Shown: positions 12,484 to 38,554 of the stretch, one piece after another
How positions within the stretch are numbered: position 1 is the first letter of the stretch
Layout: the number at the start of each line of letters is the position of its first letter
From: a phage
DNA: 64,000 bases
Sequence record: NC_100372.1
Direction: 5' to 3' (one strand)
The notes under the pieces: generated by a model
What the model was told of the DNA's origin: nothing
Database searches by the model: none
What the model saw: the letters and a program-made list of their open reading frames with translations, nothing else
Translations under genes and position numbers: made by a program

Positions 12484-12498
12484 CAAATAGAGGGAGGC

Positions 12499-13335
12499 TT
12501 GCGCCTCCCTTTTCCTTTTGGAGGCACTTTGAGCAAGAAAGAGTCCAACGACAAATATTACACAGACCCCGAGTATGCAGAATATCTTGTTGGTAAAGTA
12601 AAAGGTAAGTATGGGAATTGTGCATACGTTGAGCCTTCTGCTGGAAAGGGTTCTTTTTCAAAACTATTTTCAGAGATACTGTCGTATGATTTGGTACCAG
12701 ATCCTGAATTTGAAGGCCCAACCCCGTGTATTAAGGCAAACTTCTTAGAGGTGTACCCCAAGGCCGATGTATTCATAGGTAATCCTCCATTCGGCAAAAA
12801 TTCGTCTTTAGCTTGCAAGTTCTTTAACCACTGTGCATCATTGCTAGAGCCTGGTGGAGCTATAGCCTTCATCTTGCCACGGACTTTTGAAAAAATATTT
12901 TTTGCAAACAAACTGGACATGTCGATGCACCTTATTTACAGCGAAAGGTGCCCCAAGAACTCGTTTTTACTTAACGGCAAACCTTATGACGTGCCATGTG
13001 TTTTCCAAATTTGGGAGAAAAAGGTGTGCAATAGGGACCCTGTAGAGATCGGGGAGAATAAGTTATTTTCTTTTAGCACACCGGACGATTACGACTTCTG
13101 TATAAGACGTGTTGGGTATAATGCTGGGAAAGTATTGGGAGAGGATGACCCAAAATCTGAAGAATCAACATATTTCATAAAATCTTTAGTTGATGGTGTT
13201 GACAGAGTGTTTGCTGAGTGCTATTCTTCTTTTCAAGAAGAAGCAGGTAAGACTGCTGGAATGAAGAGTATAGGCAAGAAAGAACTACAATACATTTTGG
13301 AGACCAGGTATGATCAAAAGTATAGACTTGACTAA
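12499..13335 (+). CDS. N6-adenine DNA methyltransferase, gamma-class-like, orphan
   Basis: YYTDPEYAEY (YYTP-like), SAM motif VEPSAGKGSF, catalytic motif IV FIGNPPFGK. Confidence 0.7.
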   Translation: MRLPFPFGGTLSKKESNDKYYTDPEYAEYLVGKVKGKYGNCAYVEPSAGKGSFSKLFSEILSYDLVPDPEFEGPTPCIKANFLEVYPKADVFIGNPPFGKNSSLACKFFNHCASLLEPGGAIAFILPRTFEKIFFANKLDMSMHLIYSERCPKNSFLLNGKPYDVPCVFQIWEKKVCNRDPVEIGENKLFSFSTPDDYDFCIRRVGYNAGKVLGEDDPKSEESTYFIKSLVDGVDRVFAECYSSFQEEAGKTAGMKSIGKKELQYILETRYDQKYRLD

Positions 13336-13768
13336 AGAGCTTACTGATGCAAAAGCTTTTGGTGAGACAGCTGTGCAAAGGGGGCAGGCTATGGGGCTGG
13401 CACTACCTTTTGTCTTAAAAGAGCATTTTACAGATTTTCAGCTTATCCGTGGTGAAAAGGGGATGCTTATTCTGGAGCATAAGCTGAGTAAGAAACGTTA
13501 TAAAGTTGTTTTTAATTCTAAAGCTCCAACAAAACTTGGATTCAGAACTTACAATCTCAACCCTTCTTATACTAAGGGTGTTGGAAGAGTGGAACAGCAA
13601 CATCTCAGTGCTAGAGCTTCTTTAGCCCCTTTGATGCTAAATTTCTCAGGTGTTGCTTTGGGATACCTGGATAAGAAAAGAGTTCTTCATGTTCGTTTTA
13701 CAGACTTCGTAACGCTTTTAGCTAACAACGAAGTAGATGAAAAGGGACGTGTAAAAACAAACTTCTAA
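13310..13768 (+). CDS. Hypothetical protein
   Basis: 152-aa ORF. Confidence 0.4.
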   Translation: MIKSIDLTKELTDAKAFGETAVQRGQAMGLALPFVLKEHFTDFQLIRGEKGMLILEHKLSKKRYKVVFNSKAPTKLGFRTYNLNPSYTKGVGRVEQQHLSARASLAPLMLNFSGVALGYLDKKRVLHVRFTDFVTLLANNEVDEKGRVKTNF

Positions 13769-13783
13769 TAACGTGCAGTATGA

Positions 13784-13987
13784 TTGGAGACCGCAATGAC
13801 ACCAGAGTTAACAATTCCAGACAGCTTTTCAGAAAGCTTTATCCCAGAAATGATGAAGAAGATGCAATCACTGCTTGATCAGATTGAGGAGGCTGTTTGG
13901 GAAGACGATGCTGTAGTAGCTAACGAGCTGGTAGATAAGTGTAAAAGTATTATTGATGCAATTGAAGAATACCACGGAGGTTTTTAA
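13784..13987 (+). CDS. Hypothetical small acidic protein
   Basis: 67-aa ORF, coupled to the downstream gene (TAATGG). Confidence 0.35.
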   Translation: METAMTPELTIPDSFSESFIPEMMKKMQSLLDQIEEAVWEDDAVVANELVDKCKSIIDAIEEYHGGF

Positions 13988-14589
13988 TGGATATTATTGT
14001 TCTTAATGCTCCACCAAGTTCTGGAAAAGACCATATCGCAGATCTTTTGTTGGAAGCCATTCCAAACTCGCATCACCGCGAGGTAAAGGAAATGCTATTC
14101 AGTGTGGCAATTAAGGCAGCGGGTATTTCACCACAGTTGTGGAATGCACTCTATGATCGCCGCTACAAAGAAGAACCGTGCCCGTTCTTAATGATAGACG
14201 GCAAGCATGTTTCTCCGCGAGAATGGATGATCCATTGTAGTGAAAATCTGATTAAACCTATCTTTGGTGAAGACGCTTTCGGTAAGGCCGCAGTCGCATC
14301 CTTGAAGAAAGATTTCCCTGAAGGTAAAGGGGTTGTTGTTTACTCCGATGGTGGCTTCAAAGAGGAGCTGGCATGCCTTGGCGAGTACGCATACAGCACA
14401 GGTGGCGATCTTCTACTGTTCCGTATCCACCGTGCAGGATATGATTGGGGAAATGATTCCAGAACTTACCTTAGCCTAGAGAAGAACGGGATAAAAGGTA
14501 TCGAGTTTGATGTTGTTAACCCTGAGGGGTCTCCTTGGGAGTGCGCATCTGAGATTGTGTGCAAGTATATTGATGCTAAAGAGGTCTGA
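13987..14589 (+). CDS. Deoxynucleoside monophosphate kinase-like P-loop protein
   Basis: N-terminal MDIIVLNAPPSSGKD, resembling T4 gp1 dNMP kinase MKLIFLSGVKRSGKD as recalled. Confidence 0.5.
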   Translation: MDIIVLNAPPSSGKDHIADLLLEAIPNSHHREVKEMLFSVAIKAAGISPQLWNALYDRRYKEEPCPFLMIDGKHVSPREWMIHCSENLIKPIFGEDAFGKAAVASLKKDFPEGKGVVVYSDGGFKEELACLGEYAYSTGGDLLLFRIHRAGYDWGNDSRTYLSLEKNGIKGIEFDVVNPEGSPWECASEIVCKYIDAKEV

Positions 14590-14594
14590 GAACA

Positions 14595-15188
14595 ATGCTG
14601 ATCGGAATTGATGTAGATTTAACACTGGTAGACTCAGGAACAGCATGGTGGGAGTGGCTAGAGCGTTTATATGGTCCAGCCAGCAAGACAGTCGCTAAAC
14701 CTTCTAACGGACTGATGTATTACGATCTGTCAAAGTATTGGCCTGATCGCCCCAAAGAAAACATCATAGGGCCTTTTGATTTCTGGAGTGACCCGTTCCT
14801 CTACGACTTTCTTAAGCCTGAAGAGGGGGCTATTGAGGTTATGAAAGATTTGGTGGCTCGTGGTCACAAGCTTGCATTTATCTCTGTATGCAAGAAAGGT
14901 CACCTTGCATCTAAATCAAGGTTCTTAAAGCGTTGGACCAGCGATTTTATGGATCTGGACGATCACACCCAGGGTCACGGCTTCTACGCCACACATTTCA
15001 AAGGTAATGTGGCTGTAGATGTTATAATTGACGACAGACATGAATACCTGAACCAATTCGCTTCACGCCCTGAAGTTATTAAAATCTTAAAAGACACTCC
15101 TTATGAGCAATTCGAGGAGTTGAAGGTCAGTGTTGACTATACCACCAATAGTTGGTATAAAATAGGAAAGTTTTTAGAAGGTATTTGA
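14595..15188 (+). CDS. HAD-superfamily phosphatase, 5'(3')-deoxyribonucleotidase-like
   Basis: HAD motif I IGIDVDLTLVD (DxDxT) at the N-terminus; 197 aa. Confidence 0.5.
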   Translation: MLIGIDVDLTLVDSGTAWWEWLERLYGPASKTVAKPSNGLMYYDLSKYWPDRPKENIIGPFDFWSDPFLYDFLKPEEGAIEVMKDLVARGHKLAFISVCKKGHLASKSRFLKRWTSDFMDLDDHTQGHGFYATHFKGNVAVDVIIDDRHEYLNQFASRPEVIKILKDTPYEQFEELKVSVDYTTNSWYKIGKFLEGI

Positions 15189-15189
15189 A

Positions 15190-15390
15190 ATGGGCAGATG
15201 TTCTAAAGGTGGCGATCCTGTAGTCAGATACGGTGACTGGCTAGAGGTATATGATCTTGGAGGTAAGCTAGTGTATGCCTCCAGGATCACCCAAGACATG
15301 TGCTCTGATATGTTTAACAGATACCTTGCATTTAAGGCCAACATAAACCCAGACGAAATTTCCAAAATTAAAACAAGGAGAGCTAAATAA
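15190..15390 (+). CDS. Hypothetical protein
   Basis: 66-aa ORF with an upstream RBS. Confidence 0.35.
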   Translation: MGRCSKGGDPVVRYGDWLEVYDLGGKLVYASRITQDMCSDMFNRYLAFKANINPDEISKIKTRRAK

Positions 15391-16373
15391 TGCTAAAACT
15401 GTGCACTGCAAAGATTATTGCCGACAGCATTTCCGAGAAAGGTAAGCGTATCACCACTTTTGAGCTAGAGTATCCTCGAATTATTCACTCAGAGCTTATG
15501 ACACATCGAGTGTTCAGCCGAAACGCCATGTCTTCTCGTGCAGTTCCTGTCGGTAAGATGCTACAGCAGATCGTGGAGAATCCGGCAATGCCAGTTCGCT
15601 TCGGTGTAAATAAGCGAGGGATGGAAGATGGTGGGGAACACGATCAAAAGATCCGTGTAGAGTATACCGACATGGAGTTAACTCCTGAAGAGTTTTGGAA
15701 AGAAGCTGCAAAAAACGCCGCGTGGCATGCAGAGAAGTTCGCCCTTGCTGGTTACCATAAGCAAGTATGTAATCGCTTAGTGGAGCCGTTTCAGCGCATG
15801 AAAACAGTTGTAACAAGCACCGAGTGGAATAATTTTTTCCATCTGCGTTGCTGGCACGATGCTGATCCTACGATTCAGATGCTGGCTAATTGTATGTGGG
15901 ATGCTCTTATGAATAGCACTCCTGAAACCCTTAAACCAGGCCAATGGCACACCCCATATGTAGAGCACGTTTATTTGGACGGTGAGTTTAACTATGCCGT
16001 GCGTGACACAGAAGGGAAGCTATGCATTCTCGATACTGGAGAAGCTCTATCTATTAGTGCGAGCTGCTGTGCACAAGTATCTTATCGCAATATTGACAGC
16101 ACGTTTGAAAAAGCAGATAGTGTGGCTAAAAAATTGATTGGTGGGGATCGTATTCATGCAAGCCCTTACGAGCACCAGGCGACACCTATGGATCACGATA
16201 ATGCAATGGAACGTTTAAACTACTACCTGTCTTCATGTGAAATCACACAAGATAGTTGTGTTTGGCAGGAAGGTGTAACCCATCAAGACCGTGATGGTAA
16301 ATTCTGGTCTGCCAACTTTTGTGGGTGGGTTCAGCACAGACAGTTGCTTAATAACCACTTCATGAAAGGGTAA
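15390..16373 (+). CDS. thyX: Flavin-dependent thymidylate synthase ThyX
   Basis: ThyX signature in THRVFSRNAMSSR (xHRxxSxxxxSxR; first Arg replaced by Thr); 327 aa. Confidence 0.7.
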   Translation: MLKLCTAKIIADSISEKGKRITTFELEYPRIIHSELMTHRVFSRNAMSSRAVPVGKMLQQIVENPAMPVRFGVNKRGMEDGGEHDQKIRVEYTDMELTPEEFWKEAAKNAAWHAEKFALAGYHKQVCNRLVEPFQRMKTVVTSTEWNNFFHLRCWHDADPTIQMLANCMWDALMNSTPETLKPGQWHTPYVEHVYLDGEFNYAVRDTEGKLCILDTGEALSISASCCAQVSYRNIDSTFEKADSVAKKLIGGDRIHASPYEHQATPMDHDNAMERLNYYLSSCEITQDSCVWQEGVTHQDRDGKFWSANFCGWVQHRQLLNNHFMKG

Positions 16374-16374
16374 G

Positions 16375-16400
16375 CCTATCACAGCGATAGGTAACTTTTG
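16375..16400 (+). terminator. Hairpin after thyX (weak terminator)
   Basis: cctatc-acagc-gatagg followed by taacttttg. Confidence 0.4.
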
Positions 16401-16402
16401 TG

Positions 16403-16431
16403 TTGACTAATAGCATTAGATAATCTATAAT
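16403..16431 (+). promoter_or_regulatory. Consensus sigma70-like promoter
   Basis: TTGACT 16403-16408, 17-nt spacer, TATAAT 16426-16431. Confidence 0.7.
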
Positions 16432-16471
16432 AGTGGCTCACTTTGTTGGTGAGCCAGAAAGGGAGACAGAT

Positions 16472-16933
16472 ATGAGTGATGTTATGATTCCTAAAAAGAC
16501 ATTTATTTCAGTTACTTTAGATTTCCTATCTACCGTTCCTGGGTTTAACGTTCGCACACGAAACGGTCTTCGAGCTGCACTCTTTGCCGTAGGGTTTGAT
16601 TTAAAAAATATTGATGTTCTTCGTGGAAAAAACGTTAGATGCAAAAATAAACCAACTCATTATCGAAAGGCCGATGTATTTGCTGGTGTCATGCGTGCAG
16701 ACTTTAGATACCCACAAATGTATAATGGTGTAGATATTCTAGATGTAGATAAAGCACCCGGTGAGACAATGCTTGTTCAAGATCTTCCGTATGATATCCC
16801 CGTAGAGGATCGTGTCAATGTAAGAAAGTATACAAAACAATCTGAAAAGGCTGAAGATATTCATATTGTTGATGAACCTTTCAATTTTGAAGATCTGCAT
16901 CGCCTGGAAAAATTATTCGGTATTGAAAGCTAA
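16472..16933 (+). CDS. Hypothetical protein
   Basis: Start at MSDVMIPKK with an AGGGAG RBS; downstream of the consensus promoter. Confidence 0.4.
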   Translation: MSDVMIPKKTFISVTLDFLSTVPGFNVRTRNGLRAALFAVGFDLKNIDVLRGKNVRCKNKPTHYRKADVFAGVMRADFRYPQMYNGVDILDVDKAPGETMLVQDLPYDIPVEDRVNVRKYTKQSEKAEDIHIVDEPFNFEDLHRLEKLFGIES

Positions 16934-16943
16934 GGTGGTGAAG

Positions 16944-17174
16944 ATGAGTCATAACTCCAAGTGGAAGGATCTTGGTTTTGCAAGTCGGGCAGAATATGTT
17001 GGTTGGCTTTGGTTCAATGGCCTGACAAACGATATTAAAATGTATGATGATGTTTATTATGACGAGTATACAGGTAAAATTATAAATATCTCTGTAGAAG
17101 AGGATACCTTTACCCAACAAGATACTGATACCTGCCTTGATAAATACGTTGATGAAGTGGAGGAAGCAAATTGA
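16944..17174 (+). CDS. Hypothetical protein
   Basis: Start at MSHNSKWKD with an AAGGTGG RBS; overlaps the nrdA start. Confidence 0.4.
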   Translation: MSHNSKWKDLGFASRAEYVGWLWFNGLTNDIKMYDDVYYDEYTGKIINISVEEDTFTQQDTDTCLDKYVDEVEEAN

Positions 17175-19486
17175 TCACCAAGGTAATTAAAAGCAACGGA
17201 TGTGAAGTAGCATTCGATCCGGAACGTTTAAATAAGGCAGCTATTTTCGGTGACGACGGTAACGGCAATTGGTCACATATTGCACTTGATGCATACAAAC
17301 GGCTGTATGATGGATGCACAACCAAAGAAGTTAACCAAGCTATTATAGACTCCTGTGTTAGCCGTAAGGACGAAGCACATTCTCGTATGGCTGGTCGTGT
17401 TCTTATCGGTCAGATTTATAAAGAGGCTTTTGGAGGATTCACAAAGATCCCTTCCTTACCATCATTTTACAATACCATGGTTGATAAAGGGTATTGGGAG
17501 GATATGGGCTATAGCTTTACCGAGTTAAACACTTTAGACACTGTTATTGATCACAGTAAAGACCTTGGTTATGGCTATGCAGTCCTTAAACAGTTTCGAG
17601 ACAAATACGGGATCAAGGATACTCTTAAAGACACCCTGTTCGAATCTCCACAGATGATGTTTATGGGGATAGCGATGGCTGTCATGAAAAATATGCCGAA
17701 AGAACGCCGTATTGACGATGTTGTAAAATTATACACTTATCTGTCAGACTTAAAGATCAATGCCCCGACACCGTACTTAAACGGTCTACGCACAGGCAAG
17801 ACAGGGTATGCATCTTGTTGTGTAATAAAAGCTGACGATACAGCAAAATCTATTGGTGTGGCACGTGAAGTTGCATACACAATGACGGTTAACCAAGCAG
17901 GTATTGGCTACTATTTATCATCAAGATCTGCAGGTGATGGTGTTCGTGGTAACACTATTAAACATATGGGCAAGATTCCATATTATCGAGGTATTGATGC
18001 TGGAGTTAAGGAGAACAGACAACAATCACGTGGCGGTTCTGCAACAGTATCATTCCTTGCACTGGACCCGCAGATTGATGAGCTAATCCGTTTGAGAAAC
18101 CCTATGACTGTTGCTTCAAAAAGAATCAACACCATGGACTACTCTATAGGTATTAATAGGTCGTTTATCAACCGTGTGGCTAAGAATTTAGATTGGATGC
18201 TTGTTTCTTATAAGCACGCTCCTCAACTGCATGAGGGTATCTTCACCATGTCTATGGAGGAGTTTGATGCAGAGGTTGATCGTATCGCTAAAGATGACAG
18301 TATTCCTAAAACATGGATCCGAGCTAGAGATCTTGCTGTTGAGCTGATCACTCAGCGTACCGAGGTTGGAAGGCTGTACGTATACTGGACAGATGAGATG
18401 AATAGACATACACCTTTTAAAGATGTAATCTATTCAAGTAACCTGTGTGCAGAAATAGCCCTCCCGACAAAAGGCTATTCAGATATGCGTAATATCTTCA
18501 AGTACGATGTTGATGATGGCGAAGTTGCATTGTGCTTCCTGTCATCTCTTGTAGCCGGAAGGGTTACCCCAGAGGAGTATGAGGATGTTGCATACTACAC
18601 GGTGCTTATGATTGACAATGTTATGGAAATCATGACATATCCGTATGAAAATATGGAGAGCACTGTTAAAAAACGCAGATCCATTGGGGTTGGCCTTACT
18701 AATGTTGCACATTTTATTGCCAGCCACAAGGTTACTTACGGATCTCCTGAAAGTAAACAGCTTGTTCACGATCTTGCAGAACTTCACAGCTACAGCTTGC
18801 ATAAGGCAAGTTTACGATTGGCAAAAGAGCGTGGTGTCTGTGAGTGGATGCATAAAACAAAATACCCGGAGGGTTGGTTACCAATCGACACCTATAACAA
18901 AGAGGTCGATAGTGTGGTGAAAGATCCTTCTCTTAAGCAGGATTGGGAAGGGTTACGTAAAGAAATCATTGAAAATGGTGGGCTACGTAATAGCGTTCTT
19001 GAAGCATATATGCCTAATGAAAGCTCTTCGCTGGCAACAAACACCACTAACGGGGTTTATCCTGTCCGTGAACACATTATCTTTAAAAAGTCACCACAAG
19101 GGCAGGTGCTGTTTATCGTTCCTGAATATGATGAACTGAAAGAGTATTATACCTCGGCTTGGGACGTTGATACTAGCGACATGATTGATATGTATGCTGT
19201 GATTCAAAAATTCACAGGACAGGCAATCAGTGCTGACCTATATATTGATTACACCAAGTTGAAAGATGGTAAAATTTCAATGAAAGAGCAGCTGGGGTAT
19301 CTTATCCGTGCTACTAAATTCGGGATGAAGACATGGTATTACTTAAACTCTCGGGTTGGTGCTGGTGACTCTTTGACAGAGGAGCTTCACGCGAAGAAAC
19401 AGGCTGAAGATGAAACCAGAAAGAACTATCCTTTGATTGCAGATAGTTCAGTTGAAGATCCGTATTGCGAAAGTTGTGCACTGTAA
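17171..19486 (+). CDS. nrdA: Ribonucleotide reductase class Ia large subunit
   Basis: 771 aa, N-terminal ATP-cone (VIKSNGCEVAFDPERLNKA), C-terminal redox Cys pair CESCAL. Confidence 0.9.
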   Translation: MITKVIKSNGCEVAFDPERLNKAAIFGDDGNGNWSHIALDAYKRLYDGCTTKEVNQAIIDSCVSRKDEAHSRMAGRVLIGQIYKEAFGGFTKIPSLPSFYNTMVDKGYWEDMGYSFTELNTLDTVIDHSKDLGYGYAVLKQFRDKYGIKDTLKDTLFESPQMMFMGIAMAVMKNMPKERRIDDVVKLYTYLSDLKINAPTPYLNGLRTGKTGYASCCVIKADDTAKSIGVAREVAYTMTVNQAGIGYYLSSRSAGDGVRGNTIKHMGKIPYYRGIDAGVKENRQQSRGGSATVSFLALDPQIDELIRLRNPMTVASKRINTMDYSIGINRSFINRVAKNLDWMLVSYKHAPQLHEGIFTMSMEEFDAEVDRIAKDDSIPKTWIRARDLAVELITQRTEVGRLYVYWTDEMNRHTPFKDVIYSSNLCAEIALPTKGYSDMRNIFKYDVDDGEVALCFLSSLVAGRVTPEEYEDVAYYTVLMIDNVMEIMTYPYENMESTVKKRRSIGVGLTNVAHFIASHKVTYGSPESKQLVHDLAELHSYSLHKASLRLAKERGVCEWMHKTKYPEGWLPIDTYNKEVDSVVKDPSLKQDWEGLRKEIIENGGLRNSVLEAYMPNESSSLATNTTNGVYPVREHIIFKKSPQGQVLFIVPEYDELKEYYTSAWDVDTSDMIDMYAVIQKFTGQAISADLYIDYTKLKDGKISMKEQLGYLIRATKFGMKTWYYLNSRVGAGDSLTEELHAKKQAEDETRKNYPLIADSSVEDPYCESCAL

Positions 19487-19492
19487 TTTAAA

Positions 19493-19513
19493 AAGGGGCT
19501 TCGGCCCCATTTT
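19493..19513 (+). terminator. Intrinsic terminator between nrdA and nrdB
   Basis: ggggc-ttcg-gcccc followed by atttta; A-run upstream. Confidence 0.55.
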
Positions 19514-19525
19514 AGAGGTAGAATA

Positions 19526-20614
19526 ATGGCTGTATTTAATACTGAGAACACTGCTCATAAAACTGGTGATTATCCGCTGTTTTTAGGACAGCAGATGGGG
19601 ATGTACGACTCTATTAACAAAAAGTACCCACAGCTGTTTGAACTATACAAAAAACAAAAAGAACAAGATTGGGCAGAGGACGAAGTAGATTTGTCACAGT
19701 CTATTTCGGATTTCGTAACATGCTCAAAGTCAACTTACGATGTAATGGTGCAGACACTGATGTGGCAATGGGAGGCAGACAGTGTTGCAGCAAGATCTAT
19801 CATTTGTCTGTTTTCACCATTTATCACTAATAGTGAACTTTTCACCTTGTTGATGAAGCAGTCTGAGATCGAGGTTCTTCATGCACTAACTTACTCAGAG
19901 ATTGTTAGACAATGCCTTCCTAATGCTCGTGAGATTATAGAAGAGATTCAGGAAAACCAGAACGTGCTAAGCAGGTCTGGAGTTATTGTCAAATATATGC
20001 AAGAGCTTGAGGTTATTGGTGCAAAATACCGACTGGATCCTTCCAGTGTTGAAGAAGATGTTGTACGGAAATGTATCCTTAGAGCACTTTTTGCACTTTT
20101 AGCTCTAGAGAGTATTGAGTTTATTGCAAGTTTTGCATGTACGTTCGCAGTAGCTGAGCAAGGTATTTTTGTTCAAGTTGCACAACTCGTTCAAAAAATT
20201 ATGCTTGATGAGATGCTGCATTCGAAAGGTGATTTTGCTATCATCGATATCCTGCTTGATGATCCTACATGGGAGCAAAGCTTTCTTGAGATTAAGGGAG
20301 AGTTAAAAGAGATTCTTGACGAAGTACGGATCAAGGAGTACGGTTGGAGTGACTATATTTTCAGCGAAGGAAGGGCGATTATAGGGCTTAACTCACCATT
20401 ACTTAAAGAATGGGTTGACTATAACTGTTCACCGATTTATGATTACTATAACATCGACAAAGACTTTGTGCCGCCAACAAAAGACCCGTTACCGTTTATG
20501 CAGGTGTGGATGAAACCTTCACTGCAACAGACGGCTAACCAGGAAATGTCTAACACCGACTATCGCGTCAACACAACTGTTAATGACGCTGAAGAAGAAA
20601 TTTGGGAGTTTTAA
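19526..20614 (+). CDS. nrdB: Ribonucleotide reductase class Ia small subunit
   Basis: 362 aa; ferritin-like ExxH segment DEMLHSKG; position after nrdA. Confidence 0.85.
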   Translation: MAVFNTENTAHKTGDYPLFLGQQMGMYDSINKKYPQLFELYKKQKEQDWAEDEVDLSQSISDFVTCSKSTYDVMVQTLMWQWEADSVAARSIICLFSPFITNSELFTLLMKQSEIEVLHALTYSEIVRQCLPNAREIIEEIQENQNVLSRSGVIVKYMQELEVIGAKYRLDPSSVEEDVVRKCILRALFALLALESIEFIASFACTFAVAEQGIFVQVAQLVQKIMLDEMLHSKGDFAIIDILLDDPTWEQSFLEIKGELKEILDEVRIKEYGWSDYIFSEGRAIIGLNSPLLKEWVDYNCSPIYDYYNIDKDFVPPTKDPLPFMQVWMKPSLQQTANQEMSNTDYRVNTTVNDAEEEIWEF

Positions 20615-20617
20615 TAT

Positions 20618-20896
20618 ATGAGCTGTGAAAAATCTTTTTTCATTATCATCTACGGTAAGGATAACTGCCCACATTGTGTAAGAGCAAAAGAATTTGCAGC
20701 AAGCAAAGGTATACCTTTCGTATACAAGACGCTCGGTGAAGGATACACAAAAGAAGAGCTTATTGAGAAGTGTAGTCCATTTGTTCCCAGAACGTTGCCT
20801 CAGATCTTCTTGGAAAGCAACCTTGATAGTGTCCACATAGGTGGTGCTGACGATTTCATCTCTTTTGTTAAGAATGGTTTTGGAGAGAAAAAGTGA
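20618..20896 (+). CDS. Glutaredoxin-like redoxin (RNR hydrogen donor)
   Basis: Active-site CPHC in YGKDNCPHCVRAKEF; 92 aa. Confidence 0.75.
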   Translation: MSCEKSFFIIIYGKDNCPHCVRAKEFAASKGIPFVYKTLGEGYTKEELIEKCSPFVPRTLPQIFLESNLDSVHIGGADDFISFVKNGFGEKK

Positions 20897-23016
20897 AAGT
20901 TGTAAAACGGGACGGTAGAGAAGAGGTCTATAACGGAGTTAAGGTAATCAAGGCGGCAGAGTCCGCCTTACTTGAGTCTGGGCATACTGAAGAAGAAGCT
21001 TACCGGATCGCTTGTGCGATTAATGAAGTTGTTGCCAACAATCTACCAACCGACCAGTGCACGATCTCTGTAAAAAATATCCATATCCTTGTTGAAGATG
21101 CTCTTATGGATATGGGTTTAAAATGTGCAGCCAGAGAATATATCCAGTATAGACAGACAAGAGATAATAACAGAGAGGCAGGTGGAAAACTGCTTGCAGA
21201 TATTAGTGGCTTCTTGGATCGAACTTGTGATGAATTTACAAAAGAAAACGCAAATAAGCCCACTAATCATGTACATACTCATCGTGACCTGCTTGCAGGT
21301 ATCCTTAGCAAACACCTTGCATCAACACAGATACTGCCAGATCGTGTCTCCGAAGAGCACAACAAGGGATTCATCCATGTGCATGATCTTGACTATCTGA
21401 TCAGTCCGTTAACAAACTGCTGTTTGGTGAATTATCCGGATATGCTGGAAAACGGATTCAACATTGGCAACGCCCATGTCAGTAAGCCGAAGTCAATAGG
21501 GGTTGCAACAACAATCCTCAGCCAAATCTCTAGTGCAGTAGCTAGTGCTCAATATGGTGGTCAGACCATGAGCCATATTGATCATTATCTGGCGCAGTAT
21601 GCTGAAGCAACCTATGAGAAGAATCTTAAATTTTGTCAGGAACATTGGTTGCCGGATGCTGAGACTGTTGCAATGCAAATGACGGATAAAGACGTGTTTG
21701 ATAGTATGCAAACTTTGCTATACCAAATCAATACGTTAACTTCTGTCAACGGGCAAACCCCATTCATCACATTAAGTTTAGGACTGGATACCTCAATCTT
21801 TGGTAGAATGATTACCAAAAACTACCTGAAAGTCCACAAAATGGGTCTTGGTGAAGAACGTATCACACCTGTGTTCCCTAAGGTGCTGTTCTTCCTGGAG
21901 GAGGGTATCAACATGAACCCCGGGGATCCTAACTATGATTTGAAACGATTAGCTCTGGAATGCTCTGCAGAGCGGATTTATCCTGACTTCGTATCTGTAC
22001 CACTAAATAGAAAAGTGACAGGTTCAACAGAAGGTAATGTCACAAGCATGGGTTGCCGGAGTTTTCTTAGCAAATACAATGACTTGGAAACAGGAGAGGA
22101 GAAATACCTTGGCAGATTTAACTTAGGTGTTGTTAGCCTTAACCTACCAATGATTGCGGCAAAAGCTAAAACGGAAGGTGTTGATTTCTTTGCAGTTCTT
22201 GACGAGTACTTGGATCTGGCATACGAGGCTCATCTTGTAAGGGTTAACCGTCTAAAAGGAACAAAGGCAGGGCAGAACCCCATCATGTGGTGTGAAGGAG
22301 CTCTTGCTCGCCTGGATCCTGAAGAGAGTATTGATAAACTCTTCTATGACGGGTATGCTTCCATAAGTATTGGATATATTGGTGTGTATGAAACCTGCCA
22401 GATTTTAGGCAGAGAGGGAGACAAGTCCTTAGCTCTTGGGATCCTTCAGCACATGAAAGACGCTTGTGATCGGTACAAAAAAGAAAGTGGTCTGGCATTC
22501 AGCTTGTACGGCACTCCTTCAGAGAGCTTGTGCTATAAGGCTGCAACATGTCTAGATCGTGAATATCCTGAAGTGTTGAAGCACGAGCACGAATACCTTA
22601 CCAACAGTTTCCACCAGCCCGTGTGGATCAATAGCTCACCTTTTGACAAGTGGAAGTATGAGGAAGGTTTTGCTATGATCTCTTCTGGCGGTAACATTGG
22701 ATACATAGAAACACCTAACCTGAAAAACAACCTGGATGCTTTGGAATCCCTTGTCGATTTCGGGTATAAACACATTATGTATTTTGGTATTAACCAACCT
22801 GTGGATAAATGTCTTAAGTGCGGATTCTCTGGTGAGTTCAGTGCAACAGCTAAAGGCTTTGTATGCCCAGAGTGCGGAAACCATGAAGAGGGAACGATCA
22901 GTGTGATTAGACGTGTATCTGGGTATCTGTCCAGTCCAAACTCCCGACCTTACAACAAAGGTAAGCAAGCGGAAGTTATAGAACGGGTTAAGCACTACGG
23001 CAGCTGTGGTTGCTGA
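20893..23016 (+). CDS. nrdD: Anaerobic ribonucleoside-triphosphate reductase (class III)
   Basis: 707 aa; N-terminal ATP-cone; C-terminal zinc site CLKCGF...CPECG; glycyl-radical motif RRVSGYL. Confidence 0.9.
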   Translation: MKVVKRDGREEVYNGVKVIKAAESALLESGHTEEEAYRIACAINEVVANNLPTDQCTISVKNIHILVEDALMDMGLKCAAREYIQYRQTRDNNREAGGKLLADISGFLDRTCDEFTKENANKPTNHVHTHRDLLAGILSKHLASTQILPDRVSEEHNKGFIHVHDLDYLISPLTNCCLVNYPDMLENGFNIGNAHVSKPKSIGVATTILSQISSAVASAQYGGQTMSHIDHYLAQYAEATYEKNLKFCQEHWLPDAETVAMQMTDKDVFDSMQTLLYQINTLTSVNGQTPFITLSLGLDTSIFGRMITKNYLKVHKMGLGEERITPVFPKVLFFLEEGINMNPGDPNYDLKRLALECSAERIYPDFVSVPLNRKVTGSTEGNVTSMGCRSFLSKYNDLETGEEKYLGRFNLGVVSLNLPMIAAKAKTEGVDFFAVLDEYLDLAYEAHLVRVNRLKGTKAGQNPIMWCEGALARLDPEESIDKLFYDGYASISIGYIGVYETCQILGREGDKSLALGILQHMKDACDRYKKESGLAFSLYGTPSESLCYKAATCLDREYPEVLKHEHEYLTNSFHQPVWINSSPFDKWKYEEGFAMISSGGNIGYIETPNLKNNLDALESLVDFGYKHIMYFGINQPVDKCLKCGFSGEFSATAKGFVCPECGNHEEGTISVIRRVSGYLSSPNSRPYNKGKQAEVIERVKHYGSCGC

Positions 23017-23079
23017 TACTTGACAAAAGCCACAAGGATGTGGCATATTGTTGTTACACAGTAAACTAGGAGGTGCAGT

Positions 23080-23196
23080 ATGTCGTCAGGTATTTATAAA
23101 ATTTGCAAGTGTGGTTGTCATTGCAATCTTCGTTGGTGCAAGGCACTGGATGATTTTATTTGGCATTGTCCTAAATGTGATGCGGAGTACTTATGA
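23080..23196 (+). CDS. Cys-rich 38-aa micro-protein (MSSGIYKICKCGCHCNLRWCKALDDFIWHCPKCDAEYL), putative zinc ribbon
   Basis: AGGAGG RBS 7 nt upstream; stop overlaps the nrdG start (ttATGA); not in the ORF track because it is under 60 aa. Confidence 0.35.
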   Translation: MSSGIYKICKCGCHCNLRWCKALDDFIWHCPKCDAEYL

Positions 23197-23666
23197 ATAT
23201 TGTCGGATACACAGAAATATCCTACACCGAAGGGCCAGGTCTCAGGACGGCCTTGTGGGTATCTGGGTGCCCACACGCTTGTCCTGGTTGCTTTAATCAA
23301 GCATTTTGGTCCAAAGATAAGGGAAGAGAATTCACCGAAGAAGATTTGCAGAGAATTTTGTCAGATTTGGACAATGAATCTATATGCGGTATTTCTTTGC
23401 TTGGTGGAGAGCCTTTGGCTACGTATAATGAGCCCGGTATTATTAAACTTATGAGGAGAATTAAGGAAAAGTTTGGTGACAAGAAAACTATTCTTGTGTA
23501 TACTGGGTTCACATTTGAGCATATCTCTAGTGATGTTCTTGAGCTGGCTGATATCATCATTGATGGCAAGTATGTAAAAGATTTACCAACAAAGAAACCA
23601 TTCCGAGGCAGCGATAACCAAAGAATGTTTAAAAAGGTAGCAGGCGGTTGGGTTCAGGTTGACTAA
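23193..23666 (+). CDS. nrdG: Anaerobic RNR activating enzyme (radical SAM)
   Basis: Cluster motif CPHACPGC (CxxxCxxC) near the N-terminus; 157 aa. Confidence 0.85.
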   Translation: MNIVGYTEISYTEGPGLRTALWVSGCPHACPGCFNQAFWSKDKGREFTEEDLQRILSDLDNESICGISLLGGEPLATYNEPGIIKLMRRIKEKFGDKKTILVYTGFTFEHISSDVLELADIIIDGKYVKDLPTKKPFRGSDNQRMFKKVAGGWVQVD

Positions 23667-23669
23667 TCG

Positions 23670-23699
23670 TTGACAAAGCTTTGGTAAGTTGGTTATAAT
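23670..23699 (+). promoter_or_regulatory. Sigma70-like promoter
   Basis: TTGACA 23670-23675, 18-nt spacer, TATAAT 23694-23699. Confidence 0.6.
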
Positions 23700-23728
23700 T
23701 ATCGTAATGAAAGCAGAGGAGGTGCCAA

Positions 23729-23842
23729 ATGGCTAAAAAAGCCTTGAAGAAGGCGTACAAGAAAGAGATTGCGCTTGAGCTTAAGAAAAAACACAAGCGT
23801 GAAAAGAAATATCATGAAGATGAAGAGGGGGTGCAGCAGTGA
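23729..23842 (+). CDS. Lysine-rich 37-aa peptide (MAKKALKKAYKKEIALELKKKHKREKKYHEDEEGVQQ)
   Basis: GAGGAGG RBS upstream; overlaps the GTG start of the next ORF; below the ORF-track threshold. Confidence 0.3.
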   Translation: MAKKALKKAYKKEIALELKKKHKREKKYHEDEEGVQQ

Positions 23843-24189
23843 CACAAGAGCGTATTGATTTAGCCAGTAAGTTTGTAGATCTCATTTTGCCACGGTTGGT
23901 TACTCAACATGCAGACGCTATTTCTACCAATCTTGATGGCTTACGCCTAATGCTGAACCGAACAGATGACCCACGTATTCGGGCCGATTTAGAGGCCTCT
24001 GCCAACAAACTGGAAAAGTTCTTGCAAGTAGACACGCAAGAAGCCTTGCACAAGATTATGGTGGAAGGTTTCTCTAAAGAATTCACCGTTAAAGAGCTTA
24101 AGGAGCTGATCCGCCAAGAAGAGATGAATATCCGAGTTCAGGCTGTTGCAAGCAGCATGGAAGCGGCTATTGAAAAACTGTTGCAGTAA
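23839..24189 (+). CDS. Hypothetical coiled-coil protein
   Basis: 116-aa ORF (track start is a non-ATG codon), helical/charged composition. Confidence 0.4.
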   Translation: MTQERIDLASKFVDLILPRLVTQHADAISTNLDGLRLMLNRTDDPRIRADLEASANKLEKFLQVDTQEALHKIMVEGFSKEFTVKELKELIRQEEMNIRVQAVASSMEAAIEKLLQ

Positions 24190-24227
24190 AAGTCCTTGAC
24201 ACATCTCAATCTGAAAGGAGTCCCAAC

Positions 24228-25016
24228 ATGGGTCGAGCTAAAGAAACAAAACGCATGCGTGATGAAGCCAGAGAGGCTCGCAAATCTGATCGCCTGCGTA
24301 AGGCTGCTGAGAAATTTGCTGACGAACGAGAGCACACAGCTCCAGCTCTCCGACCAATGAACAAAAAGCAGCAAAAGTATCTTGATTATCTAGGATCGCG
24401 TAAGATTATTATTGTAAACGGTGTGTTTGGATCCGGTAAGACATTCATGGCATCCGCATATGCAGGTGATCTTTTGCGTAAGAACGAGATTGATAAGATC
24501 ATTGTTGCACGCCCTTACGTTCAGACAGGAAAGACTTCAGGGTTTAAACCTGGAAACGCAATGCAGAAACTGTGGCCCTATCTCCGAAGCATGATGGACA
24601 CGATTTGTCGTCGTGTTGGCAAAGGTGCTTTTGCCGCAATGCTGGGAGATGGTCAGAACAGTCGTATCGAGATCTGTGAAGTTGAAAGCATTCGTGGTCG
24701 TAGTTTCGATGAGCGATGCTTTGTCCTAATTGACGAGGCACAGCAAACTAACCCTGAAGAGATGTTGTCAATTATCACAAGGATCTCTGATCAGGCCACA
24801 CTTGTAATCATGGGTGATAATAGCCAACGTGACATCCCTGGTAAGTCTGGGCTTGCATGGGTAACGGATTTCTTTACTCGTCATCCAGATCCTGAGGTTG
24901 GGATGATTAGCTTTGATAGCCCAGATGATGTTGTTCGTTCTGGATTGGGCCGTCAGATTGCACTCAATCTTATTAAGGATCGTGCAAATCATATTTGGAC
25001 ACCTGTTTCCGAGTAA
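24228..25016 (+). CDS. phoH: PhoH-like ATPase
   Basis: Walker A NGVFGSGKTF; 262 aa. Confidence 0.8.
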   Translation: MGRAKETKRMRDEAREARKSDRLRKAAEKFADEREHTAPALRPMNKKQQKYLDYLGSRKIIIVNGVFGSGKTFMASAYAGDLLRKNEIDKIIVARPYVQTGKTSGFKPGNAMQKLWPYLRSMMDTICRRVGKGAFAAMLGDGQNSRIEICEVESIRGRSFDERCFVLIDEAQQTNPEEMLSIITRISDQATLVIMGDNSQRDIPGKSGLAWVTDFFTRHPDPEVGMISFDSPDDVVRSGLGRQIALNLIKDRANHIWTPVSE

Positions 25017-25021
25017 TACAA

Positions 25022-25042
25022 AAGGGTGGTTATTCCACCCTT
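25022..25042 (+). terminator. Hairpin after phoH
   Basis: aagggtgg-ttatt-ccaccctt; weak U tract. Confidence 0.4.
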
Positions 25043-25060
25043 AAATATCTAAAACAATTA

Positions 25061-25089
25061 TTGACAAACAGATAAGTTTTAGGTATTAT
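25061..25089 (+). promoter_or_regulatory. Sigma70-like promoter
   Basis: TTGACA 25061-25066, 17-nt spacer, TATTAT 25084-25089. Confidence 0.6.
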
Positions 25090-25114
25090 CGAACAAAACA
25101 AGGAGAATGACAGT

Positions 25115-25426
25115 ATGGCTACAATACAAGAGAGACTGAATAAGATATACTGCCTATTTGTCTATAACGGTGAGACAATTTTGGCAAACAAAGGATACAA
25201 GAATGTGTGGATTAAGGACAGCGGTGGTAACATAATCAACTTGGCGCTACTACGTGAGCGAAGACACCGATTCTTCACTGAGTCCCGTGTTATTGAAAGC
25301 AACACATTTTACAGAACAGGGGATAAAGTAATTGTTGACAATGACACGTGGTATGTGGTAGACTGGCAATCGTTGACCTGTGATGCTTCTGACAATTGTA
25401 AGTATTCCATGGTAATTGCTAAATAA
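25115..25426 (+). CDS. Hypothetical protein
   Basis: 103-aa ORF with an AAGGAG RBS. Confidence 0.4.
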   Translation: MATIQERLNKIYCLFVYNGETILANKGYKNVWIKDSGGNIINLALLRERRHRFFTESRVIESNTFYRTGDKVIVDNDTWYVVDWQSLTCDASDNCKYSMVIAK

Positions 25427-25487
25427 AGGCAAATGAGAATCAGGTTTAAATAGATCGCTTTTAACTTTCCAACATTAAGGACCTCAC

Positions 25488-26537
25488 ATGAATTTAACAC
25501 CTCGCAGCACCATGGTACACGGCATGAAAGAAAAACAGAACGGCTTCGAACCGATGAGTAATAAAATGTTTGGTATGCCTGGTGGTATTATGGAAACATA
25601 CAGCTACCCAACGCCAGTTGTTGACCACGTGCTTTATATTGACGATCTTGATGATTTGCAGGATCATATGTCCCGTTTGCAAACAATTCGTATGGCACGG
25701 CCGGAAGAAAGTATCCGTGTAATTGTTAACAGCCCTGGTGGTTGCGTCCACATTGCTATGGCGTATTTGCAGGCATTCCGCGAGTCTCAGGCAAGCGTTG
25801 TTGTACACGCTGAAGGGATGTGCTGCTCAGCAGGAACAATCTTATGGCTGGGTTGCAAAGAACGAACTGTGGCTCCGGACACAGAGTTTATGTTCCACTA
25901 CTATCAAGGTGGCACCTATGGCAACGGTGTGAACATGAATACTCAGGTCAACTACTGGAAGAAACGTTTTGAACGCCTGATCGAAAAATACTACGGTGGG
26001 GTTCTGACAGAAGATGAGATCGCATCCATCACGGCTGGTGGAGAAGTGTGGTTGGATGGAGAAGAGCTGGCAGCTCGAACTGGTGCTATCATTCTGGACG
26101 ATGAAAACATTCAGCGCATTCAGAATGGGCAGAAACCGAAAAAGCTTTTGGCAAAAAGTGATGAAGAAGGTGTGCTAGGCGAAGCAGGCCTGCCAGAGAT
26201 TCACCAATGCACATCTCTGGACGAGCTGGTCCATGCTGTTGAGTCTGCAAAAGTAAATGGTATGAAAGGTGATGTTCACACTGTGTTCCTGAATCTGCAG
26301 ATGGAGAGTGGTGAGACCGTTAAGATTGCACTGGGTGAGATTACCTCGGAAGATCTGCAGCGATTCTCTGTGGTAGAGCTTCAGGACATTTTGTCCCAAT
26401 TGAAAACCACCCTGAACGGAGGTGAAGAAGTTCAGGTTAAAGATAAGACCCGCAAGCGTCTGGTGGACAATATTATTAAAACAGCAAAAGAGCTCAATGA
26501 AAAAATCCTGGGCGCAGGAATTGTCGAAGAAGCTTAA
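25488..26537 (+). CDS. ClpP-family serine protease-like protein with long C-terminal extension
   Basis: ClpP-like core with the Ser in EGMCCSAGTILWLG; 349 aa versus roughly 200 for ClpP; start may be internal. Confidence 0.6.
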   Translation: MNLTPRSTMVHGMKEKQNGFEPMSNKMFGMPGGIMETYSYPTPVVDHVLYIDDLDDLQDHMSRLQTIRMARPEESIRVIVNSPGGCVHIAMAYLQAFRESQASVVVHAEGMCCSAGTILWLGCKERTVAPDTEFMFHYYQGGTYGNGVNMNTQVNYWKKRFERLIEKYYGGVLTEDEIASITAGGEVWLDGEELAARTGAIILDDENIQRIQNGQKPKKLLAKSDEEGVLGEAGLPEIHQCTSLDELVHAVESAKVNGMKGDVHTVFLNLQMESGETVKIALGEITSEDLQRFSVVELQDILSQLKTTLNGGEEVQVKDKTRKRLVDNIIKTAKELNEKILGAGIVEEA

Positions 26538-26548
26538 ACATTAATCTT

Positions 26549-26574
26549 AAAGCCCTCTTCGGAGGGCTTTTATG
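26549..26574 (+). terminator. Intrinsic terminator
   Basis: aaagccctc-ttcg-gagggcttt followed by tat. Confidence 0.7.
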
Positions 26575-26588
26575 ATCTGGAGATTTGC

Positions 26589-27122
26589 ATGACTTGTGCT
26601 AGAAAACCTGACGAACAACGTAACGCCTATGATGAATATGTGACACCAGAGTGGTGTGCAGAAGGGTTGTATGACCTCATTCCGTTCCCAGAAGATTGGA
26701 CCTATTTGGAGCCTTGCAGGAATAGCGCCTCAGGTGTGTTCTACTCCCGTATGCCGTTAGGATCTGCATGGGGAGAAATCCAAGAAGGTGTTGACTATCT
26801 GAATACGGAATACAACCATGTTGACTGTATTATCACCAACCCGCCGTACAGCCTGGCTCGTGAGTTTGTGGACAAGGCGTTGAAAGATGCCGACGTAGTT
26901 ATTATGCTTTTGCGTCTTAATTTTCTGGAAAGCAAGGCCAGATTTGAATGGTGGCTTGATAATGCCCCTACCACTGTGATCACAATATCTAAGCGTCCAT
27001 CATTCCAATCGAATGGCAGAACTGACGGGCAAGCATATGCATATTTTGTGTGGGACAAGAAGAACCGTTTAGACCTACCACCATTTATGTGGTTGGCACC
27101 TCCGGAGGCAGACTTGAAATGA
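26589..27122 (+). CDS. Small phage Dam-like N6-adenine DNA methyltransferase, orphan
   Basis: Catalytic motif CIITNPPYSL; 177 aa. Confidence 0.65.
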   Translation: MTCARKPDEQRNAYDEYVTPEWCAEGLYDLIPFPEDWTYLEPCRNSASGVFYSRMPLGSAWGEIQEGVDYLNTEYNHVDCIITNPPYSLAREFVDKALKDADVVIMLLRLNFLESKARFEWWLDNAPTTVITISKRPSFQSNGRTDGQAYAYFVWDKKNRLDLPPFMWLAPPEADLK

Positions 27123-27403
27123 AAATGAGTGCTAAGGACAAGTTGCACCAGTTAGCGCTAAAACGTCCTGTAACTCTCCCTGACGAGCTTAACTCCATTT
27201 ATGATGCGATTGTAGGGGAGATACAAAATAAGGCGTTAGCAGGCTTTCTGGGATGCGGATTTTCGATAAATCTTCCATCACACCTCTCAGACTACTTCCC
27301 ACACATCGTTGGGGATTTGAGGGCAGGAGGTCTGCAGGTGGATGTTGTTGGCATCTCCCCGGAGAAAAATAACACAGTTGCCTACTTGACAGTGACCTGG
27401 TAG
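27119..27403 (+). CDS. Hypothetical protein
   Basis: Start at MKMSAKDK overlapping the methyltransferase stop (aATGa). Confidence 0.4.
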   Translation: MKMSAKDKLHQLALKRPVTLPDELNSIYDAIVGEIQNKALAGFLGCGFSINLPSHLSDYFPHIVGDLRAGGLQVDVVGISPEKNNTVAYLTVTW

Positions 27404-28347: not shown

Positions 28348-28889
28348 CAGGTATGCTTCTGATTAACTGGGAAGACCTCTATGGGGACAAAGACCCTGTT
28401 GCGTTTGTTGATCGTAGGTGGAGGTACACTGAAGAACAACTGGCTGCAAAAAATTTAACTGCAAAACGCAGAAAGATCATCCAGTGCAAGTACAAATACG
28501 CACAGTTTGCTGCAAAAGTGTCTCCACAAATCGAGAGTTTTGTACTTAAATTGTATGACGAGTACCTCAAATTCAAATTGGATTTTGTACAGGTATACCG
28601 TGCACAGGTACGTCCAGATACCAACATCTGTAGATGGAAGGTTGTTTGTGATGGTAAAGATTTGCCGCTCAGTTTGACAATTGAGTGGCGTTGGGGGTAT
28701 CATGAGTGCGGTTTGTATGATATTTGGGATGTCATTGTAGATCCTGCTAAGTACCTGAACACAGAGGAGCTGGAATATATCAATAAGGTTATTCTAGATA
28801 TGTTTTTCAGCTACACCCATGAAAACTCTGAGAAAGAACGGGATAATTTTCTTGACACCCTCGGCAACCACCTGCAGTGTACAATTTAA
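28344..28889 (+). CDS. Hypothetical protein
   Basis: 181-aa ORF. Confidence 0.4.
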   Translation: MTGMLLINWEDLYGDKDPVAFVDRRWRYTEEQLAAKNLTAKRRKIIQCKYKYAQFAAKVSPQIESFVLKLYDEYLKFKLDFVQVYRAQVRPDTNICRWKVVCDGKDLPLSLTIEWRWGYHECGLYDIWDVIVDPAKYLNTEELEYINKVILDMFFSYTHENSEKERDNFLDTLGNHLQCTI

Positions 28890-37990: not shown

Positions 37991-38151
37991 TCTGGTGCAC
38001 GATTCCATACCTTAGACAATTAATCTCCTTACAGAGCGTTTAAAGGCATCCTACAAACAACTCTCTATTTCGAGCGTAGCGAGAACGCACGCCCGTTTTG
38101 ACCCAAATCACCATACGCTCGGATTTTAACCAAACCCTCGCGGTGTTTCTG

Positions 38152-38180
38152 TTGACACATTACCGCTCCTGTGATAATAT
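38152..38180 (+). promoter_or_regulatory. Sigma70-like promoter
   Basis: TTGACA 38152-38157; -10 candidates GATAAT 38173-38178 or TAATAT 38175-38180. Confidence 0.45.
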
Positions 38181-38200
38181 CCACACATCGTTTGAAGAAT

Positions 38201-38293
38201 ATGGGATACACAATGAAAACATTGTCAGAGGTTTTAGTGGTGATCCTGATGATCATTGCGTCCATAGCGGCTGTTGCCGGAATATGCTTATAG
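38201..38293 (+). CDS. Hydrophobic 30-aa micro-protein (MGYTMKTLSEVLVVILMIIASIAAVAGICL)
   Basis: Single predicted TM helix; downstream of the 38152 promoter; below the ORF-track threshold; speculative. Confidence 0.3.
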   Translation: MGYTMKTLSEVLVVILMIIASIAAVAGICL

Positions 38294-38368
38294 CATCGAC
38301 ACGTTCCAGCCATATGTCGATAAAGTCTTATTTTTTAAACATGTTGCCGGAATACTCACGGGTGGAAC

Positions 38369-38554
38369 ATGACCAACACACATGCATCTACAGAAACATC
38401 TGAAGGAGTGACAGAGGAAAACTTCAATTCTGAGGATTCTCTATCTCCGTCCCAGGTGGACCCTGAGGCTGATGACCTAACGTGGGAGGATATCATAGCC
38501 ATCTGGTTCTCTATTATGCCTGAGCACGAAGAGTTCAGAGGTGGGAGACTATGA
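38369..38554 (+). CDS. Hypothetical small acidic protein
   Basis: 61-aa ORF. Confidence 0.35.
   Translation: MTNTHASTETSEGVTEENFNSEDSLSPSQVDPEADDLTWEDIIAIWFSIMPEHEEFRGGRL

Follow-up and report, generated by a model that had tools for sequence, protein, structure and literature searches.

The methyltransferase genes and their setting

The DNA analysed here, a window of 64,000 nucleotides from a phage (record NC_100372.1), encodes two N6-adenine DNA methyltransferases, designated open reading frames (ORFs) ORF1 and ORF2. We show here that the two enzymes are related over their catalytic cores and that ORF2 is the exact counterpart of a protein that methylates GATC in the close relative Bas51 (phage WalterGehring, MZ501111.1). 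The window comes from a Vequintavirus (rV5/FV3-like), an E. coli phage. Both gene regions share about 99-100% DNA identity with Escherichia phage vB_EcoM-ECP26 (ECP26) and 93-98% with more than 100 further Vequintavirus (rV5/FV3-like) genomes. ORF1 and ORF2 lie on the + strand within a replication/nucleotide-metabolism block, whose other members are a DnaQ-like exonuclease, a deoxynucleoside monophosphate kinase, ThyX, class I and class III (NrdD/G) ribonucleotide reductases, PhoH and a ClpP-like protease. Most of the subject has been described before: DNA (N6-adenine) methyltransferase is the label that ORF1 and ORF2 carry in more than 100 Vequintavirus records, and ORF2 has been characterised experimentally as Bas51 gp176. 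The features of the two genes are as follows.

12489..12512, + strand: strong terminator-like hairpin with a 10-bp stem (6 GC pairs) and a T-rich tail, after the DnaQ-like exonuclease gene
12529..13335, + strand: ORF1, gamma-type N6-adenine DNA methyltransferase, 268 aa from its probable start
12631..12651, + strand: ORF1 motif I, the S-adenosylmethionine (SAM)-binding loop EPSAGKG, from homologue alignment and sequence
12781..12792, + strand: ORF1 motif IV, catalytic NPPF, from homologue alignment and sequence
26589..27122, + strand: ORF2, minimal N6-adenine DNA methyltransferase of 177 aa without a separate recognition domain
26793..26849, + strand: ORF2 segment with D69 (26793-26795), D79 (26823-26825), T83 (26835-26837) and NPPY (26838-26849)

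The original prediction had placed the genes at 12499-13335 and 26589-27122, and both reading frames were found there, with matches to phrog and PADLOC families and signs of purifying selection that mark them as true genes and not as accidental motif matches. For ORF1 the end at 13335 holds, while the start at 12499 probably does not: the TTG at 12499, used in the ECP26 annotation (278 aa), falls in the loop of the hairpin (12489-12512), and residues 1-16 counted from it are disordered in the AlphaFold model. A second TTG at 12529 has GGAGG 5 nt upstream and is the start chosen in the BASEL records. The true start is therefore most likely TTG 12529, giving a gene of 12529-13335 and a protein of 268 aa.

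The motifs reported earlier, YYTDP, EPSAGKG and NPPF in ORF1 and NPPY in ORF2, are present. Numbered from TTG 12499, those of ORF1 lie at aa 20, 45 and 95, and ORF2 has YVTPEW at aa 17, LEPC at aa 40 and NPPY at aa 84. E45, P46, G49, N95, P96, P97 and F98 are invariant in 49 diverse ORF1 homologues, as are the motif residues of ORF2 across 55 diverse homologues. The phrog profiles matched are phrog_5172 for ORF1 (E=2.6e-125) and, for ORF2, phrog_799 'DNA methyltransferase' (E=5e-67). Both proteins are well modelled (AlphaFold predicted local distance difference test 91 for ORF1, 90 for ORF2) and under strong purifying selection. Compared with Bas51, the ratio of non-synonymous to synonymous substitution rates (dN/dS) is 0.06 for ORF1, which is 95.6% identical to bas51_0200, and 0 for ORF2 (27 synonymous and 0 non-synonymous differences). 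Besides these two, no further credible ORF with a (D/N/S)PP(Y/F) motif was found in the window. The description of both as SAM-dependent N6-adenine DNA methylases was upheld, with ORF1 placed in the gamma class by motif order and Foldseek, and searches of the neighbouring genes against Pfam, PHROG and PADLOC likewise found no recognisable restriction endonuclease adjacent to either gene.

ORF2 and the methylation of GATC

Bas51 has four annotated methylases, among which only bas51_0176 has D69, D79 and T83; this protein is identical to ORF2 at 177 of 177 residues. According to Nakamura et al. (PLoS Biol 2025, PMC12548924), the substitutions D69G, D79G and T83P through which Bas51 escapes the retrons Asa1 and Squ1 fall in an 'N6 adenine methyltransferase', and since bas51_0176 is the sole Bas51 methylase with these three residues, it is the enzyme concerned. 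Native nanopore sequencing of Bas51 detected N6-methyladenine (m6A) at GATC, a signal that was nearly lost in T83P (PMC12548924). With calls filtered at >60% methylation, the methylated adenines of the wild type numbered 1405 in GATC, 509 in GTAC and 576 in other contexts, compared to 35, 511 and 349 in T83P (PMC12548924). The Bas51 genome contains 703 GATC sites (1406 adenines) and 258 GTAC sites (516 adenines). Because the methylome counts approach these genomic counts, GATC and GTAC are each about 99-100% methylated in Bas51 virion DNA, and GATC methylation needs the ORF2 orthologue while GTAC methylation does not. Host Dam leaves nearly no phage GATC site fully marked at the >60% filter (35/1406 in T83P). 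Expression of the Bas51 gp176 methylase in E. coli is toxic (PMC12548924).

ORF2 had been called Dam-like, which is right for its activity, as the identical Bas51 protein methylates GATC, and wrong for its family. A classical Dam profile gave no match to ORF2 at E<=0.1, and the scores for phage Dam families stayed below the curated cut-offs (PF05869, 19.2 vs 28.1 bits; TIGR01712, 16.1 vs 97.05). No recognition domain of the alpha-class kind separates motif I (aa 41) from motif IV (aa 84) in ORF2, where the two are contiguous. A direct sequence search against solved structures found no match for ORF2. Its neighbours are the ClpP-like protease and small ORFs without a Pfam or PADLOC nuclease match, and ORF2 thus stands as a solitary methylase. 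At 177 aa it is a very small GATC methylase and may be of practical use as a minimal Dam-type enzyme.

The small ORF that follows overlaps the ORF2 stop codon.

27119..27403, + strand: 94-aa ORF, phrog_12158, overlapping the stop codon of ORF2 (ATGA)

Homologues of phrog_12158 (36-45% identity) adjoin ORF2 homologues in related phage genera that infect Klebsiella, Salmonella and Erwinia. As those genomes are syntenic overall, this adjacency tells us less than the linkage of protein Y described below. Located 1.2 kb downstream of ORF2, the gene at 28353-28874 (+ strand) is 97% identical to the Bas51 'putative glycosidase' bas51_0171, in which a premature stop (R87*) lets Bas51 escape retron Asa1 (PMC12548924). 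With 6 sites in 300 bp (28401-28700), the densest GTAC cluster of the window lies inside this gene (corrected P about 0.007).

A common catalytic core

The two enzymes had been described as unrelated, and this has to be given up. Profile comparison of the ORF1 and ORF2 families by hhalign gave a probability of 97.2% (E=3e-11) over 149 columns, with residues 8-177 of ORF1 aligned to residues 5-160 of ORF2, and both match one common region of phrog_799. They also share the gamma-type order of Y-x-T-P, an EPxxGxG-like SAM loop and NPP[YF], and Foldseek relates both to M.TaqI, CamA, M.BseCI and HsdM, along with RNA adenine and guanine methylases of the same fold. ORF1 and ORF2 are thus distant homologues over the whole catalytic core, which makes up all of ORF2 and is joined to a C-terminal domain in ORF1.

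ORF1 and its bacterial relatives

Residues 8-253 of the 268 in ORF1 align to positions 2-249 of 269 in the REBASE-derived PADLOC model MTase_II (PDLC03255), a full-length match with E=5.9e-33. Its motifs follow the gamma-class order, with motif I before motif IV and about 100 further residues at the C-terminus that presumably form the target-recognition domain. In Foldseek searches the ORF1 model matched M.TaqI, CamA, M.BseCI and HsdM with a probability of 1.0 (E about 1e-6), and the template modelling score is only about 0.4 since the match is limited to the catalytic domain. Plain sequence methods reach less far: the score against Pfam PF07669 (Eco57I/TaqI-like) is 17.6 bits, below the gathering cut-off of 25.3, and a direct search against solved structures gave marginal M.TaqI matches only. 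A further family, PF26055 (Mtase_EDM2), is listed in precomputed tables for some ORF1 homologues and was dismissed after hmmscan of ORF1 and four homologues failed to reproduce it.

Relatives of ORF1 with 32-43% identity are common in bacterial chromosomes, for example in Sphingomonas, Rhodobacterales and Dehalococcoidia. At 18 of 78 bacterial loci the methylase gene is directly followed, often with an overlap, by a gene for a conserved protein of about 200-220 aa (protein X), which matches the PADLOC model REase_II (PDLC03460, E=5e-11). The match to PDLC03255 together with this downstream protein matching PDLC03460 identifies the ORF1 family as a genuine Type II restriction-modification (R-M) methylase family. 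Protein X (for instance at L010:6805-7404 and L014:4785-5438, and at 16 further bacterial loci) has invariant E16, D42 and K58 and a QRRLQCS block, and is without a match in Pfam, NCBIfam or PDB. At loci L014 and L015 the methylase gene is immediately preceded by an IS1595 transposase gene, and in L010 such a gene lies within a few kb, which suggests that methylase and protein X form a mobile, compact R-M module.

The phage has no homologue of protein X, and ORF1 consequently has no adjacent cognate nuclease of the kind that completes a Type II system. Its neighbours are the DnaQ-like exonuclease and a small protein designated Y.

13310..13768, + strand: protein Y, phrog_9938, 152 aa, overlapping the end of ORF1 by 26 nt

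Further methylases and the second mark

The count of two methylases is correct for the window and too low for the phage lineage. A PF01555 Type III Mod-like adenine methylase of 441-447 aa is encoded in ECP26 (MK883717, 11068-12411) and in Bas51 (64456-65781, bas51_0070). A gene annotated as 'Dcm-like' C5 methylase in Bas51, without a Pfam hit, is found in the same two phages (ECP26, 9000-9764; Bas51, 67042-67806). Both genes sit 1-4 kb past the 3' end of the window, and the methylase complement of the lineage therefore comprises four genes, three for adenine methylases and one Dcm-like.

E. coli K-12 is not known to have a GTAC methylase, and hence a phage enzyme must write the second mark of the Bas51 virion, GTm6AC, which covers about 99% of its sites. 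The candidates for this role are here narrowed to two, ORF1 and the Mod-like enzyme outside the window. Self-methylation at two motifs, as originally predicted, thus holds for the near-identical Bas51 with GATC and GTAC (PMC12548924), and ORF2 accounts for GATC; the assignment of the second motif to ORF1 is not secure because of the third, Mod-like adenine methylase. GTAC is depleted in the bacterial loci of ORF1 homologues both with nuclease X (observed/expected ratio, O/E, 0.77) and without it (0.69), so that palindrome avoidance does not single out a target for the family.

A proposed role in marking the phage's own DNA

The explanation that we favour, and to which we give a probability of roughly 75%, is that a related pair of enzymes with a gamma-type core serves to mark the phage's own DNA, with ORF2 acting on GATC and ORF1 as a candidate for GTAC. 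The phage would carry two solitary SAM-dependent N6-adenine methylases in its replication/nucleotide-metabolism block. ORF2 would methylate the adenine of nearly every GATC in replicating phage DNA, and ORF1, one of the two candidate writers of GTm6AC, would descend from a Type II R-M methylase of which the phage retained the methylase only. The phage would mark its DNA itself since host enzymes fail to do so, and the marks would mask GATC, GTAC and sites that contain them (e.g. KpnI, GGTACC) from methylation-sensitive nucleases. The price would be detection of the methylase activity by retrons. Self-methylation at two motifs was shown in Bas51; its use for the evasion of restriction, as originally proposed, is inferred.

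Several observations weigh against this explanation. Natural E. coli hosts are Dam+, which rules out GATC nucleases of the m6A-blocked kind in them and makes a benefit of GATC methylation hard to explain. Beta-class enzymes can also recognise palindromes, and M.RsaI (GTAC) is of this class. ORF1 has about even odds of being the writer of GTm6AC, on circumstantial grounds of elimination and architecture, and fold searches of its C-terminal domain against PDB and viral libraries gave no characterised match. The term 'solitary' may be incomplete for ORF1, given its conserved partner Y. The O/E of GTAC in the window is 0.63, the second lowest among 4-bp palindromes, unlike what fully relaxed selection would predict. 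Vequintavirinae were 'exceptionally susceptible' to the R-M systems tried in BASEL (PMC8594841), none of which cuts at GATC or GTAC. Finally, the sole demonstrated consequence of ORF2 is the triggering of retron-mediated abortive infection, a liability (PMC12548924), and the measurements of its activity come from Bas51. Neither restriction digests nor methylomes of rV5-like phages came up in a literature search.

It is possible, although we lean against it, that GTAC is written by the Mod-like adenine methylase (the bas51_0070 orthologue) and that ORF1 has its target elsewhere, perhaps among the 349 'other' m6A sites. The enzyme is encoded in both Bas51 and ECP26, and those 349 methylated adenines outside GATC and GTAC are retained in T83P. 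Type III Mod subunits usually mark one strand of asymmetric sites. The nearest solved relatives of the Mod-like enzyme are of just this type (EcoP15I Mod, E=2e-24; 6k0w Mod, E=1e-28), which speaks against it as the source of a palindromic mark, as does its occurrence in fewer phage records than ORF1 (88 vs 120, at >=90% identity). Moreover, the known GTm6AC enzyme M.HpyAXII, a gamma-type, TaqI-like protein with motif IV at N87 (PMC2588503), corresponds in architecture to ORF1 (N85, counted from 12529), a likeness of motif layout that also speaks against the Mod-like enzyme. The retron study itself gave GTAC to no gene (PMC12548924), which leaves room for the Mod-like enzyme.

A different objection concerns the purpose of the marks. 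Methylation might mainly serve as a replication, repair or packaging mark, for example by blocking MutH nicking at unmethylated GATC, or regulate genes, with protection from restriction not its main role. We consider this rather unlikely, although part of the evidence points that way: Dam+ hosts are not expected to have m6A-blocked GATC nucleases, Vequintavirinae are highly sensitive to R-M systems, and both genes sit within the replication module. In addition, point mutants of ORF2 in Bas51 reached 2-3-fold lower titres on a K-12 host free of retrons (P<=0.001; PMC12548924), and this loss hints at a benefit unrelated to classical restriction. On the other hand, the GATC sites of the window show no significant clustering that would hint at a regulatory or pac-like element, the ORF1 family is derived from R-M systems, and the depletion of GTAC is as expected under past pressure from a GTAC nuclease.

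Protein Y and the substrate of ORF1

Protein Y is under strong purifying selection (dN/dS = 0.025 vs Bas51). An ordinary search found it in Vequintavirus only, and an exhaustive HMMER search added four remote relatives. Remote members of the family show 26-30% identity. The family consists of small, basic proteins of 132-152 aa with a conserved PS[YFW][TQ]KGxGR block. Members of the family lie in the comparison loci as follows.

L098:2060-2491, Y relative
L017:3467-3997, Y relative
L099:1504-1914, Y relative
L102:662-1060, Y relative
L103:2091-2501, Y relative
L104:2119-2517, Y relative

In Phapecoctavirus the Y relative is encoded directly upstream of the ORF1 homologue, and further relatives border on ORF1 homologues, or overlap them, in phage-like contigs, some of them marine. 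Taken together, at least seven phage lineages have Y next to an ORF1-type methylase or overlapping it. The flanking genes differ and Y may stand on either side of the methylase, so the linkage is specific to the pair, and its recurrence across unrelated phage contexts is a lead to a new methylase partner. Some GenBank records (e.g. phage ime, gene ime_34) call Y itself a 'DNA N6-adenine methyltransferase', apparently by annotation spill-over.

In bacterial relatives of ORF1 the position of Y is occupied by the nuclease, which raises the question whether ORF1 and Y form a phage R-M pair, in which Y would be a small novel nuclease acting on unmethylated host DNA and ORF1 would protect the phage, as in chloroviruses. 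Such a phage-borne R-M system, if real, would degrade host DNA that lacks methylation and leave the GTAC (or other) sites of the phage protected. The recurrent adjacency or overlap in at least seven phage lineages and the strong selection on Y would fit, but we regard a nuclease as highly improbable. Neither invariant acidic residues nor a conserved (D/E)xK motif is found in Y, searches of Pfam, PDB, PADLOC and NCBIfam gave no match, and 132-152 aa is small for such an enzyme. Nor is it similar to the bacterial nuclease X. A likeness between Y and X seen by eye (KAFGE...D42...E56-H-K58) was rejected, as hhalign gave 0.3% with a single sequence or a profile and the residues are unconserved in the Y relatives. 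Y seems more likely to be an accessory partner of the methylase than a nuclease, and a milder alternative would make it a so far undescribed subunit of the methylase, with an accessory or specificity role.

That ORF1 modifies RNA (tRNA or rRNA) or some other substrate instead of DNA is barely credible: its best Foldseek match is the tRNA m2G methylase TrmN, followed by Trm14, Trm5 (tRNA m1G37 methyltransferase) and a putative RNA methyltransferase, some homologues are named 'predicted RNA methylase' by JGI, one scores with the rRNA adenine dimethylase family, and (D/N)PP(Y/F) is also present in m2G RNA methylases and HemK, but against this stand the match along its full length to a Type II DNA methylase model derived from REBASE (E=5.9e-33), the pairing of bacterial relatives with a Type II nuclease and once their position beside a Type I R-M locus, the homology to ORF2, a proven DNA methylase, and the presence in phage DNA of a methylation motif without an assigned enzyme.

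Observations on the surrounding sequence

Within the block that holds ORF1 and ORF2, ThyX (15390-16373, + strand) is a single intact ORF of 327 aa in the window and is split into two coding sequences in the ECP26 record. NrdD (20893-23016, + strand) is an uninterrupted ORF of 707 aa, while in Bas51 a homing-endonuclease gene separates the two pieces from which it is joined. As these interruptions vary, the content of mobile elements differs among close relatives. At about 38000-40600 a change in the sign of the GC skew coincides with a switch of the coding strand, which marks the border of divergently oriented gene blocks. The longest GATC-free gap of the window (1037 bp, 39553-40590) lies at this border, and chance alone would give a gap of about that size. 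Some 20-30 records under the name 'Campylobacter phage' (host C. jejuni) share 93-99% identity with these E. coli Vequintavirus genes, which suggests that they are mislabelled or contaminant public entries.

Comparison with known systems

Gamma-class enzymes of the M.TaqI/M.HpyAXII type share with ORF1 the Y-x-T-P motif, the EPxxGxG loop, NPPF some 40 residues further on and a C-terminal domain. M.TaqI is also among the Foldseek matches of ORF1, and its sequence alignment is weak. Differences are the length, 331-421 aa against 268 aa for ORF1, and the recognition domain of TaqI, which is undetected in the ORF1 C-terminus. The bacterial PDLC03255/PDLC03460 modules share the methylase with ORF1 over its full length; they have the nuclease directly downstream, where the phage has the different small protein Y.

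For ORF2, the phage Dam proteins of the T1/HP1 type (PF05869/TIGR01712) are similar in their size of about 170 aa, the NPPY/DPPY core, the absence of a recognition domain and their phage-borne, solitary occurrence. ORF2 matches the same profile region weakly and belongs to a sister family, phrog_799. The alpha-class Dam proteins of E. coli and T4 have in common with ORF2 the product Gm6ATC and the solitary status, but carry a recognition domain between motifs I and IV, whereas in ORF2 motif IV follows motif I directly. Closest of all is Bas51 gp176, which shows no difference from ORF2 at the protein level (100% identity, with the same D69, D79, T83 and NPPY) and is flanked by the same neighbours, a ClpP-like gene upstream and the 94-aa ORF downstream.

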